IMG/VR virus record: IMGVR_UViG_3300018080_000104
Location: 67,454 to 131,453 of that record
Length of the DNA: 64,000 bases
Reading direction: 5' to 3' (one strand)
DNA from: a virus
Taxonomy: Duplodnaviria; Heunggongvirae; Uroviricota; Caudoviricetes
Both the position numbers and the translations under genes were made by a program. The notes below the pieces were generated by a model that searched no databases, was not told the DNA's origin, and was given only the letters and a program-made list of their open reading frames with translations. Positions 27,505 through 31,163 of the stretch are shown here, in pieces. Within the stretch, counting starts at the first letter, position 1. Every line of letters begins with the position of its first letter.

Positions 27505-27966
27505 TCAGGCTCCTCCAGAGATATCGACCGCGGCGCCTGCCACCAACGTTTGGCCCGCGACAATCGATCGTACGAGGGATGCCACTTCTTCCTGAATTGT
27601 CTCCCACGCATCTTCTGCCTGCGACTCAGTATCAACGATAACATCTATATAATCGAGCCGCACTACTTGCGGATCTTGTTCTGGATCTGGTGTGTACCTT
27701 GGATATTGCTCCATGTCCGGCCAAGTACAAACGCCCGAGAGTTCGTACTCGTTCTCGCCGGATTGCGAGTTGGTGCGTACGACAGTATAACGGAATATTT
27801 CATTCTGCATACCACATGCGCCCGACGCGACGACGCGCAGCCGAAAACCGCGATGTCGATTATAGACGAAATCCGACTGGCCCCATTGCTGCAGATGGAC
27901 ACTAACTTCGCCTGGTACACAGCTGGAACTGGAACTGGAACTGGAACTGGAACTGGAATCTGCCAT
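27505..27966 (-). CDS. hypothetical protein with an N-terminal 12-Ser tract
   Basis: AAAGGAGG ribosome-binding site; Ser tract encoded by a hexamer repeat. Confidence 0.7.
   Translation of the reverse strand: MADSSSSSSSSSSSSCVPGEVSVHLQQWGQSDFVYNRHRGFRLRVVASGACGMQNEIFRYTVVRTNSQSGENEYELSGVCTWPDMEQYPRYTPDPEQDPQVVRLDYIDVIVDTESQAEDAWETIQEEVASLVRSIVAGQTLVAGAAVDISGGA
27923..27958. repeat. (CTGGAA)x6 microsatellite encoding poly-Ser
   Basis: Six perfect tandem hexamers read directly. Confidence 0.9.
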
Positions 27967-27996
27967 TGAAAGCCTCCTTTCTGAAATCCGCCAAAA

Positions 27997-28926
27997 TCAA
28001 AATGAATACACCAAGCCACCAAATCGCTGCAACAATTTAGTCTTTGAGTAAGACACGGGAAAGTTGTCGTCCCATTTAGTCCTCAGTGTAATGCAGTTGG
28101 CTTTCAGGCTACGCACCGAGCCAACCACTGTTCCTCTTGTTCTATGACTGGATTTCACTAAATCATAGTGGCGAAGACCGTTCTTCTCCGTACAAGTCTT
28201 GGTTGGATTTGCTTCCCAAACCTTCGCTCGTCTTGGTTGGATTTGGTATTCATTTCCAACCAATTTGTTGCTCTCTACTATCGCACAAGCGTCATGGCTG
28301 TGTTTCTTGGTCAAGCTAAGATTGAGCCGAGTTTGCTTAGTGATGTAGCCGAATGTCGCCTCATACATCAAACCTAACTTTTGTACTTGTTCTCTGAGAT
28401 AGGTCTTGCCAATTTCCACCAAAGAGAAGAACTTGCCATACTTGTATTTTGCGTGATTGAAACCAACTTCCTCAACCTTGACTTTCACGATGTTGAGTCT
28501 TTTCCCTAAGTCCTTGACTACACGCAAGATACATTCTTTTCTTTGTCTGATACTTGGAGCAATCTTTGATCCAGCTCTATTGCTGAACCTTGGTTGGCGA
28601 TTTCTAAGCCGAAACCGTCTGGCTCTGCGATAATTCCGTCTTTCTTCTACTTTCCTGCTCACATCCTGCCTGTGATCCAGTTGAGCGTGAAATACTACTT
28701 CATTGGTCTTGGTGTTCTTGACGGCAATGCCAACATGCTTCGCACCGTCGTCAACGCCAACCTCAAACTCTCCCACGGGATTATCTACCTTGCGGTTGAG
28801 TTGAATCGTGAAGGGAACCACTTGCTTGACCTTGGCTTTACCTTCACGCAGTAGTTTCCTACTGCGTGCTGGATGCGTTGGTAAGAGTGGTTTGCCTTCA
28901 CTGTCTATTACAAAAACAATACTCAT
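27997..28926 (-). CDS. isrB: IsrB-type RNA-guided nickase (PLMP + split RuvC + bridge helix, no HNH), 309 aa
   Basis: KPLLPTHPARSRKLLREGKAKV..VPFTIQL (PLMP/RRXRR), RuvC-I GVDDG, Arg-rich helix RRNYRRARRFRLR, RuvC-II VEE, RuvC-III HSHDACAI; no HNH or Cys insertion. Confidence 0.85.
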   Translation of the reverse strand: MSIVFVIDSEGKPLLPTHPARSRKLLREGKAKVKQVVPFTIQLNRKVDNPVGEFEVGVDDGAKHVGIAVKNTKTNEVVFHAQLDHRQDVSRKVEERRNYRRARRFRLRNRQPRFSNRAGSKIAPSIRQRKECILRVVKDLGKRLNIVKVKVEEVGFNHAKYKYGKFFSLVEIGKTYLREQVQKLGLMYEATFGYITKQTRLNLSLTKKHSHDACAIVESNKLVGNEYQIQPRRAKVWEANPTKTCTEKNGLRHYDLVKSSHRTRGTVVGSVRSLKANCITLRTKWDDNFPVSYSKTKLLQRFGGLVYSF

Positions 28927-28929
28927 TTA

Positions 28930-29100
28930 AGAGTTCTCTCCTTTCGGGATATTGTTGTCCTCGGCCATGTTGCCAACGGATTATCCAGAACTGGACACAT
29001 TCTGGCGTCCTTTATGTTGGCTAACGTAGTTGGACGTTTCACCCAAACAGCAGGGCTTAATTGCCAACTCAGCCTCGAAGCTCTCAAACTACGTTTGATT
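28930..29100 (-). ncRNA. omega-RNA scaffold (boundaries approximate)
   Basis: ACUACGUU (29023-29030); CCAGAA/UUCUGG hairpin (28985-29005) whose loop UGUCC can pair with GGACA of CAUGGCCGAGGACA (28956-28969), the expected pseudoknot; AAAGGAG ribosome-binding site follows. Confidence 0.75.
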
Positions 29101-29177
29101 TTCATGGATTTTCACCGATTTTGGTGGATTTCCATTAGCTGTTATAAGCTCCTTGCAAATGGTAAGGCCTTATTATA

Positions 29178-31163
29178 TCAAGAATGCATTTTTTTGAATA
29201 CACCACCTGGCTGCCAGCCCTGGTCGCCTGTATGGATTTCCTCTAGTCCCCGTCTTGCGGCAGATGAAGTTGCTATGAACTGGTTTTTGTTATTCCAGCT
29301 GCCCATATGATAGCCTGCTTGCCAGAGTTGTTCGCCAATCATATAAGCGCCGCCATTTTGGCCGATTTCCGGATCCGGAATGTTGGTACGCTGTACAACA
29401 TCTCTGGCAATGGCCCAAAAACCTCCGGCCGGAAACTGCACATATTCGCCATTGGGGGATTCATTTCCGTTTCGTGTCTGGAACAGTCGGTTGTGGTACC
29501 ACGGACGGCTCCGAATCCAGCTAACCTGGGCTTGGCTCAGTTTCCAGTAGAACTCAGCCCCGACTATTCGCGCTCCATTGGCATAAACGCTGACAATTTT
29601 TTTGCACAGTTTGTCTAGCCAGGCCGCATCTTTATTTGCAATGGAATCGTCGTCGAACCATATGATCCATTTGTCGGTAATAGGATCATCTTGATCGTAG
29701 AACAGCTGCCGCATGGCCGGATATTTTTTCATGTTTGTCTGGTTGACAATGATTTTGTGTATCTTCTGCTGATCTTTGAGTCGGCTCAAATATTGCAGCG
29801 TTTCGGAACAGACTTCGTTACAGGCTATCCGGATTTGCCTATGCTCTGCTTGCGTTGTGCTCAAAATTGAATTGAGACATTGTTTGTGCAAATGGAAATA
29901 GTTGCCATACATCAGTATGCAAATTGTCACACGGCCGCCAATAATCTTGTTCTTTATCGCTTCTCCGACCGGCAATGTATGGTTATTGAGGCCTTCGAAC
30001 TTGTTGACGACTGTCGGCGGTTTGTTTGCCGCATGGCCTGCGTGCGTATCGTTTTTGATATCTACCTGGAATAGATCCAAAAAAGCTGGAGCCCTTGCCG
30101 GCGGCGGAATTGCTTCAGTCGGCGTCTGCGACAGCGTGCCAGCTACAATCTCTTTGCCGTCAGGGAGGCGGATGCGCGGCGGATCGCCTATGGGCGGCAG
30201 TGTTCCACATTTGTAATAATCCATGACTGCTTCTACCACGTGTTCAGGTTGAATCATATCCAAGCATTTCGGATACAACTGTCCATTATCATCATATACA
30301 GCCGACTTACAATACATACGGTGTTTGTCTTGCTCCAGCTTTGATACTTTATTCTGCCAGCAGCCTTTACGTTCGCAGCAAGGCAGCAACCCTAAAGTAT
30401 GCAAGAATCTATGCGGAACAGGGTGCGGTTTGCAGTGCGGACCGAAAATCTGTTCGTCTACATTACAGTATGCCTCCCACCACCAATGTTCGCGGCCACC
30501 CGCAATGACAACGCACGGCGTATGCAGCGCTGCAGCAATGTGGGCTGCAGCTGTCACATGGCAGATTACACCGTCGGCGTGATAAATCATCCACAACATG
30601 TCACGCAGATTGGTTTTACCCACAACGTTTAATACGCCGGTCATGGGCGGCTGCGTATGCCCCCTGAACAGTGCTCCGTCCTGTACGAAACGAATACCGA
30701 ACTGCCGTAACATGTCTACCGTCTGTTGCCACTTGAGCGCGGACCATATTTTGCAGGTAAAATCACTTTTACCTCCCGTAATGATATACCAATACCGACC
30801 GTCAATAGGCGAATTCTGTTTTTTATAATCGCTCAAATGCAGGTCGCCGTGTGGCTCCAATACAGGCACGTATTGTCCGATTTTTTCGCTCAAATCAGCA
30901 TGGAATGCCGAAATGAAGTGCATCGGTTTTGTATTGGCTTTCGTGATATACTTGCCGTAGTCCAGCTTGAAGGCCTGCATGCCTGGTGTATTATTTCGCC
31001 CTGTTCGTCGGATATACGGATTATTCTTCCACATGGCGCTGCAGGACGTATTGACATAGATATCGTATTCGGGATGCGTCCTTGCCAAATCGCGGATGCA
31101 TGCAGTCATGCAGACAATATCGCCCGGCGCTCTATCGTGCGTTAGTAAAATTGGTCGGCCCAT
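29178..31163 (-). CDS. two-domain glycosyltransferase: GT9 (heptosyltransferase-like) plus GT2-like
   Basis: APGDIVCMTACIRDL, GKTNLRDML.MIYHADGVICHVTAAAHIAAAL.TPCVVI, C.DMIQPEHV; second domain VTICIL..CLNSIL and WIIWFDDDS (DxD). Confidence 0.85.
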   Translation of the reverse strand: MGRPILLTHDRAPGDIVCMTACIRDLARTHPEYDIYVNTSCSAMWKNNPYIRRTGRNNTPGMQAFKLDYGKYITKANTKPMHFISAFHADLSEKIGQYVPVLEPHGDLHLSDYKKQNSPIDGRYWYIITGGKSDFTCKIWSALKWQQTVDMLRQFGIRFVQDGALFRGHTQPPMTGVLNVVGKTNLRDMLWMIYHADGVICHVTAAAHIAAALHTPCVVIAGGREHWWWEAYCNVDEQIFGPHCKPHPVPHRFLHTLGLLPCCERKGCWQNKVSKLEQDKHRMYCKSAVYDDNGQLYPKCLDMIQPEHVVEAVMDYYKCGTLPPIGDPPRIRLPDGKEIVAGTLSQTPTEAIPPPARAPAFLDLFQVDIKNDTHAGHAANKPPTVVNKFEGLNNHTLPVGEAIKNKIIGGRVTICILMYGNYFHLHKQCLNSILSTTQAEHRQIRIACNEVCSETLQYLSRLKDQQKIHKIIVNQTNMKKYPAMRQLFYDQDDPITDKWIIWFDDDSIANKDAAWLDKLCKKIVSVYANGARIVGAEFYWKLSQAQVSWIRSRPWYHNRLFQTRNGNESPNGEYVQFPAGGFWAIARDVVQRTNIPDPEIGQNGGAYMIGEQLWQAGYHMGSWNNKNQFIATSSAARRGLEEIHTGDQGWQPGGVFKKMHS

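Follow-up and report, generated by a model that had tools for sequence, protein, structure and literature searches.

Nucleases of the IscB and IsrB type have so far been described in transposons of the IS200/IS605 group (Meers et al. 2023; PMC13565253). Unlike TnpB, they have been reported without any association with the serine transposases of IS607 elements (Meers et al. 2023; Altae-Tran et al. 2023), and a 2026 review places IsrB under IS605 only (PMC13565253). In the RNA of IsrB, the guide is followed by a 5' stem, the apical hairpin of which is dispensable, and by an adaptor pseudoknot, and the known target motifs of IsrB are of the form NTG(A) (PMC9581776). Among the transposons of the IS607 family, IS1535 has helically phased motifs near both ends, four of them at a distance of 20-60 bp from one end and two at 10-28 bp from the opposite end (PMC6188088), the adjacent motif of IS607 TnpB is usually AGGAG or GAGGG (2026 review, PMC13565253), and unmatched GG/GC dinucleotides at the two junctions of an element have been documented experimentally. 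The literature yielded no published IsrB or IscB on IS607 ends.

The cassette considered here, which is called W in the following, lies in a window of 64,000 nt (positions 67,454 to 131,453 of the virus record IMGVR_UViG_3300018080_000104); all coordinates without a locus name are those of the window, and L-numbers denote the other loci that were compared. The record is complete, has 195,453 bp with direct terminal repeats, and contains the cassette in a single copy (Table 1). On the minus strand, a glycosyltransferase gene is followed by the cassette and then by the gene of a 153-aa protein. Homologues of these two flanking genes are direct neighbours in seven related phage contigs (with glycosyltransferases that are 47-51% identical), with only a short spacer between them. 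In this spacer, an AAGGAGG ribosome-binding site accompanies a motif like TGTATAAT or CGTATAAT. The cassette is therefore an insertion. A megablast search of deposited phage genomes gave no match to the region, no RNA dataset was listed among the public runs that contain the phage, and the contigs of four public runs contained neither an empty site nor a circle junction, the only related copy being one whose match ends at 29150. Public assemblies break at a GGAACT hexamer repeat (27923-27964), which gives the 153-aa protein a stretch of 12 serines at its N-terminus.

Table 1. Features of the cassette W and its surroundings (positions in the window).
Feature	Position	Strand	Basis or remark
Upstream phage gene, 661 aa	29178..31163	-	two glycosyltransferase domains (Pfam)
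Extended -10-like TGATATAAT, candidate promoter for guide and scaffold	29172..29180	-	shares bases with the stop codon of the 661-aa gene; 19 nt upstream of the GG
Predicted guide segment (phage flank and 5' leader of the downstream gene)	29153..29170	-	directly 5' of the first helix; length and 5' end inferred
Left junction GG, candidate crossover dinucleotide, within AAGGAG (29149-29154)	29151..29152	-	matches the GG position at 38 distinct IS607-type left junctions
Whole cassette, 1175 bp with one copy of the shared GG	27976..29150	-	similarity limits among independent insertions
Omega-RNA scaffold	28900..29152	-	covariation; 3' limit approximate
First helix	29146-29152 with 29077-29083	-	17 loci
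Pseudoknot	29138-29143 with 29046-29051	-	14/17 loci
Four AAATC boxes in 10-bp phase, 20-55 bp from the left GG	29097..29133	-	homologous to boxes of transposase-encoding elements
Left arm of the inverted repeat	29117-29132	-	within the left box set
isrB, 309 aa	27997..28926	-	RRXRR/PLMP domain and split RuvC, without HNH
Two inverted boxes at a distance of 7-22 bp from the right GG	27983..28003	-	right arm of the inverted repeat 27983-27998
Right junction GG within AAAGGAGG (27973-27980)	27976..27977	-	also Shine-Dalgarno site of the downstream gene
Downstream phage gene, 153 aa	27505..27966	-	ribosome-binding site at the right junction of the cassette now serves its translation

By its domain content, the 309-aa open reading frame is an IsrB, with a PLMP/RRXRR domain and a split RuvC domain and no HNH domain (Pfam PF14239 (RRXRR), E 4e-47; NCBIfam guided_IscB NF040563, 184 bits), and the candidate RuvC residues D59/D60, E152/E153, H209 and D212 are invariant in alignment A1. 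An HNH insert is found in only one sequence of the alignment, L030 (2501-3685). This is an IscB with an intact HNH domain that clusters with the HNH-less IsrB proteins and is 56% identical to that of W, and the ends of the locus are of the same kind as those of W (14/15 inverted repeat). HNH thus has been gained or lost within one family of ends. In bacterial and archaeal genomes there are only 13 distant relatives, mostly HNH-bearing IscB, and no genome with multiple copies by which ends could be defined. At L008, a group I intron (2342-2592; Rfam RF00028, 79 bits) lies about 130 nt past the isrB stop codon inside the next phage gene, an arrangement that recalls a free-standing homing gene beside an intron.

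A reading of the window made from the sequence only had taken an inverted repeat as the exact bracket of the cassette. The repeat is real, as recomputation gave 15 complementary positions out of 16 between 27983-27998 and 29117-29132, a score that is reached by about 1 in 1000 shuffles, and all positions of the shorter repeats could be confirmed, with GATTT starting at 29097, 29107, 29117 and 29127 (strict period of 10) and AAATC at 27984 and 27994. Of the isrB stop codon (27997-27999), which the repeat was said to include, the right arm covers two bases. The repeat is not the boundary, though, as conserved sequence extends 18-20 nt further on the left (29150-29152) and 6-7 nt further on the right (27976-27978). 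These limits come from a comparison of about 20 independent related insertions (proteins 54-91% identical), all of them in different phage contexts and co-oriented with their neighbours. On the left, the similarity runs beyond the inverted repeat through ...ATGGAATCGACAATATTC (in reverse), which is GGAG-CTTATAACAGCTAATGG on the isrB strand, and ends at GGAG, and on the right it ends at ...YAGAAAGG; a related copy from another metagenome diverges at 29150. The junctions in the window therewith read TTTGCAA-GG-AGCTTATAAC on the left and CAGAAA-GG-AGGCTTTCAATG on the right.

It had also been claimed that no duplication was evident, but a direct repeat AAGGAG at 29149-29154 and 27975-27980 had been overlooked. 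This repeat is a shared recombination core or target motif and not a duplication of fixed length. One could still think of a DDE-type transposon, with the inverted repeats as its termini and AAGGAG as a target-site duplication of 6 bp, as there is an inverted repeat with a flanking direct repeat, but the inverted repeats are subterminal with essential covarying RNA elements outside them (see below), the direct repeat varies in length, is unmatched in L048 (GGAG vs GCAG) and absent in L003, and there is no DDE transposase gene among the neighbours of the cassettes as far as these are annotated. A DDE transposon with target duplication was ruled out as a candidate by the boundary data, and such an origin is extremely improbable. 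In L004 and L027, the junction direct repeats have 9 and 13 nt, which is longer than a 2-bp crossover predicts and counts against an IS607-type model.

Relatives without the cassette read AAGGAGG at the position of the right junction. The cassette has inserted at the GG of this ribosome-binding site, and its right end rebuilds the site for the downstream gene. Deletion of 27976-29150 gives ...GCAAGGAGGCT..., a string that is present at the orthologous site of L010. The spacer that remains after removal of the cassette has 36 nt and not about 65 nt as had been estimated, and the ribosome-binding site is left intact, as had been stated correctly.

The omega-RNA scaffold includes the sequence between the left junction and the inverted repeat, and its core can be aligned in 17 loci. 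The first seven bases at the left junction, starting with the GG (in W they are GGAGCTT), pair with a seven-base stretch that directly precedes a conserved CGAGG. In 17 independent cassettes 111 of 119 cells of this first helix are paired, compared to 40-68 in three controls, and there are compensatory changes, with C-G in place of A-T at position 3, and T-A, C-G or T-G at positions 6-7. The AACAGC segment that follows forms a helix of 5-8 bp with the core in 14 of the 17 loci, and the helix sequences differ among loci (TGGCAAA/TTTGCCA, AAAACTG/CAGTTTT, CTGACA/TGTCAG, TAGCAG/CTGCTA). As the covarying helix and the pseudoknot match the published layout of IsrB RNAs, the start of the scaffold can be placed at 29152 (GGAG), and as the first helix and the pseudoknot strand begin there, outside the inverted repeat, the guide is most plausibly the upstream phage flank. 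The candidate guide sequence is unique in the genome, and the flanks are different at every locus compared. The sequence-only reading had considered a fixed or self-targeting guide that consists of the end repeats of the element; this does not agree with a scaffold start at 29152, where a unique phage flank occupies the guide position. A search of the window with Rfam models gave no relevant match, HEARO included, even at E 10, and HEARO matched one bacterial relative with 38 bits only, with the 5' stem not covered.

The loop of the first helix comes in two sizes, 15-34 nt or 57-69 nt, and the boxes are present in the long form only; the left-end box set thus sits in an expandable loop of the 5' stem of the scaffold. 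A putative promoter for guide and scaffold is the extended -10-like TGATATAAT, with TGTATAAT or CGTATAAT in the equivalent intergenic spacer of related phages. A two-hexamer promoter scan made no call at TGATATAAT, so that it is by conservation that it is considered to be a candidate. The predicted guide/leader CCTTACCATTTGCAAGG (29151-29167) may form a small hairpin, in which CCTT pairs with AAGG of the ribosome-binding-site motif. At L309 (3211-3290), the full element has directly upstream of it a truncated copy (AGAGCCTAATAGCAGTTGATAGG...) that covers about the first 35 nt of omega-RNA and left end.

In a scan of the collection, the right-end 20-mer of W matched, in reverse, a different element of about 1.5 kb at its left end. 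This element starts with GGAGG followed by TTNTAACTGCTTATG, then come four phased AAAATC boxes, an internal promoter, a small open reading frame, a cargo gene and the gene of a 205-210-aa protein, and the right end is ...GAATCTAATGGAATTTRAAAAGG followed by AGG. The 205-210-aa protein has an N-terminal HTH and a resolvase domain, it scores 174-190 bits with NCBIfam NF033518 'IS607 family transposase' (cut-off 110), and its closest solved structures are the TnpA proteins of ISC1926 and IS1535. Judged by these matches, it is a bona fide IS607-family serine transposase. Relatives that are 74-100% identical occur at at least 110 viral IMG/VR loci, which gave 38 distinct left and 49 distinct right junctions with unrelated flanks. 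The left junctions read G (34/38) and G (37/38), followed by an invariant AGG, and the right junctions read an invariant AAAAGG, followed by A (48/49), G (40/49) and G (45/49), which is the outcome expected from a crossover at the GG within an AAGGAGG target. The cargo includes Mom, C5-cytosine and N6-adenine DNA methyltransferases, and a PAPS-reductase-like protein. In this family (L222-L300; e.g. L220:10150-11710, L237:3060-4640, L291:2410-4640), a 55-aa open reading frame and the internal promoter are conserved, and every insertion is at the GG of an AAGGAGG that closely precedes the start codon of a phage gene.

These elements (e.g. IMGVR_UViG_3300020183_000215) and the cassette are alike in their homologous left and right ends, their GG-in-AAGGAGG junctions, their habitat and their insertion just upstream of phage start codons, but unlike the cassette they encode a serine transposase and DNA-modification cargo, have an internal promoter, and contain neither IsrB nor an omega-RNA. 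IsrB cassettes and transposase elements share the metagenomes 3300031566, 3300031578, 3300031669 and 3300005613. The only physical linkage of the two element types that was found is L324 (1030-4700), where an IS607-type element and an HNH-bearing IscB element lie in tandem, 55 nt apart and each with its own AAGGAGG; the tnpA gene of this locus is broken by an in-frame TAA at 2742-2744.

The likeness of the ends can be quantified. In ungapped comparisons, the left 56 nt of W are identical to the left ends of the transposase elements at 35-43 of 56 positions (63-77%; 0/5000 shuffles), and this is as close as the likeness to the more distant IsrB cassettes. At the other end, 16 of the last 26 nt of W (anchored at the GG) agree with the consensus that the IS607-type family has for its right ends (4/10000 shuffles), and the right end of the IscB element in L324 agrees with the same consensus at 19 of 26 (0/10000 shuffles). 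Beyond the terminal AAAGG, the likeness of the right ends is modest, which weakens the case for an IS607-type model. Like in IS607 elements, GG is present at both termini of the cassette and in the cassette-free orthologous sites, which read AAGGAGG, and there are short direct repeats near the ends together with an imperfect inverted repeat at unequal distances from them; also the unmatched GG/GC junctions known from IS607 have a counterpart in L048. The earlier proposal of IS607-like ends was thus well-founded, as both ends are homologous to those of transposase-encoding elements and GG/AGGAG is found at both junctions.

The serine transposases of IS607 elements combine a MerR-like HTH at the N-terminus with a resolvase catalytic domain. 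There is no match to the serine recombinase domain PF00239 in the cassette or in the 195-kb genome, and the cassette is therefore at best a non-autonomous member of the IS607 family. When about 70 IsrB/IscB loci were screened, the serine transposase was found in none except the tandem L324, where it stands beside the IscB element, and it lies inside no cassette of this IsrB clade. These absences speak against an IS607-type model. It had been suggested that a different class of transposase moves the cassette in trans. The homology of the ends supports this at the level of sequence, and that the cassette is actually mobilised is what we infer from it.

The more conventional assumption would be an ordinary IsrB element of the IS200/IS605 type that is moved as single-stranded DNA by a Y1 (HUH) TnpA, in which case AAGGAG would be the target motif and an element-borne look-alike. 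This is the setting in which IscB and IsrB have been published, a motif outside one end and inside the other is expected also for IS200/IS605 elements (Meers et al. 2023), and at the omega-RNA end the box region forms an imperfect hairpin. However, a subterminal hairpin was found at that end only, whereas the isrB-distal 90 nt have none on either strand in W, L030 and L008 (z -0.9 to +1.0 vs shuffles), and the Y1 transposase PF01797 was found neither in the genome nor in the contigs of four relatives and one phage contig with an IS607-type element, nor is there a Y1 family among the annotated neighbour genes of the relatives. In addition, the motif at the junctions is GGAG and not NTG(A), and both ends match serine-transposase-encoding elements instead. 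The earlier statement that the ends are unlike those of IS200/IS605 elements was therefore confirmed, by the lack of a hairpin at the isrB-distal end and of Y1 in the genome and the five related contigs. An IS200/IS605 element was rejected as a candidate on account of the missing second hairpin and the missing Y1 gene, and it is very improbable that the cassette is one.

Considering all this, it is probable, as far as can be told from sequence comparison, that the cassette is a non-autonomous IS607-family transposon with the gene of the IsrB nickase and the omega-RNA as cargo, which is moved in trans. Of the phased boxes, the left set (29097..29133) adopts an imperfect hairpin fold in the first-helix loop (z -2.3 and -3.1), and the right set follows immediately 3' of the isrB stop codon. 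No other place in the 195-kb genome has three phased boxes; in the collection, a scan for three phased AAAATC boxes gave mostly unrelated A-rich DNA among the matches listed, and a scan with the left-end 17-mer gave only chance matches in coding sequence beyond the known copies. About 7 of 17 related cassettes have a short 5'-stem loop from which the boxes are missing, and as all of these still are at GGAG, the boxes are dispensable for persistence. There also is no significant inverted repeat in 10 of the 16 related cassettes with both ends, all of them likewise at GGAG, and both observations weigh against the model. Where the repeat is present, its arms co-vary (GAAATCCACCAAAATC in the clade of W, GAAACCCATGAAAATC in L306 with a perfect 16/16, CTAAAACCTA in L008, CAAAACTAACCAAAA in L030), and this joint change of the two arms argues for selection.

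It could also be that the cassette does not transpose at all and spreads only as a free-standing homing element, by the IsrB nick and homologous recombination between co-infecting phages. The IS607-like ends would then be relics, and the inverted repeat would have another role or none, such as RNA pairing of the 5'-stem loop with the 3' untranslated region or DNA bending by phased A-tracts. The single copy per genome, the absence of a transposase in cis, the many box-less yet intact relatives at GGAG sites, and the location between conserved phage genes, which resembles that of free-standing homing endonuclease genes, are in line with this, and for RNA pairing it can be said that the two arms are complementary on one transcript. 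But the cassette family is found at many unrelated sites, which requires transposition or an equivalent process, and the joint change of the arms speaks for selection. As to the RNA pairing, several phased copies per end agree better with protein binding than with a single RNA duplex, and the mismatches in the arms are not compensatory. A life cycle by homing only is thus unlikely.

If the cassette is indeed a non-autonomous IS607-family transposon, the serine transposase would be supplied in trans by a co-infecting phage or by the host, it would bind the phased boxes and excise the cassette as a double-stranded circle, and the circle would recombine at the GG of another AGGAG site. The predicted circle junction is ...CAGAAA-GG-AGCTTATAAC..., and the predicted joint left in the donor is ...TTTGCAA-GG-AGGCTTTC.... 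Transcription from a phage promoter would enter the cassette and result in an RNA with the phage leader, i.e. the first 13-20 nt, as guide. IsrB with this RNA may nick cassette-free copies of the site, reading the leader and then the GGAGG-like motif, and the nick may stimulate a recombination that copies the cassette back, which would serve its retention after excision or its homing into co-infecting relatives. The occupied site retains the guide match and GGAG. Position 5 is C in 16 of 17 cassettes and mostly G in the targets, and a discrimination between self and empty site would have to rest on position 5 or beyond. As IsrB reads its motif 3' of the target, the RNA would have to be at the motif-carrying end, which is the mirror image of the TnpB-bearing IS607 elements.

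With the IS607 transposons (IS607, IS1535, ISC1926, CboIStron and other TnpB-bearing elements), the cassette shares a GG that is present in the target and at either junction, an adjacent motif of the AGGAG type, the lack of a fixed duplication, an inverted repeat that is imperfect and not equally far from the two ends, four phased repeats at one end and two at the other, and an RNA-guided nuclease as passenger, which is an IsrB of the Cas9 lineage in the cassette and TnpB in these transposons. It differs from them in that the guide RNA is at the left end with a guide from the left flank, whereas the RNA of TnpB-bearing IS607 elements is at the right end, in that the presumed transposase-binding boxes lie in a loop of the guide RNA, and in that there is no tnpA. 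With the DtIsrB-omegaRNA of Desulfovirgula thermocuniculi (PDB 8DMB) and other IsrB/IscB systems of IS200/IS605 elements (e.g. the IscB of ISGst), it has in common the HNH-less RuvC nickase with PLMP/RRXRR, the order of a guide at the 5' end, a 5'-stem region whose apical hairpin is dispensable, and an adaptor pseudoknot, and the mostly non-autonomous state in co-orientation with an upstream gene. Unlike these, the cassette has no Rfam HEARO match (E 10), GGAG in place of NTG(A), no isrB-distal hairpin, and its omega-RNA at the motif-carrying end, in the same orientation as the tnpA of the related elements.

For the phage-borne IsrB/IscB clade as a whole, we would cautiously favour the view that it has exchanged the IS200/IS605 system with its Y1 transposase for the IS607 system with its serine transposase. 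The guide RNA would have come to lie at the left end, the AGGAG/GG target would double as 3' target-adjacent motif, the boxes would reside in the dispensable hairpin of the guide RNA, each insertion would land on a Shine-Dalgarno site and restore it, and the leader in front of a phage gene (its 5' leader) would serve as guide.

If IS607-type enzymes mobilise these cassettes, nucleases of the Cas9 lineage have partnered with both classes of transposases, as TnpB has, and this partnership would have forced the mirror-image layout with the guide RNA at the target-motif end. A further prediction would be that this IsrB recognises a motif of the GGAG type and not NTG(A), which would make it a compact nickase whose target range is new. 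A selfish element that lands on ribosome-binding sites and restores them can occupy phage operons at almost no cost.
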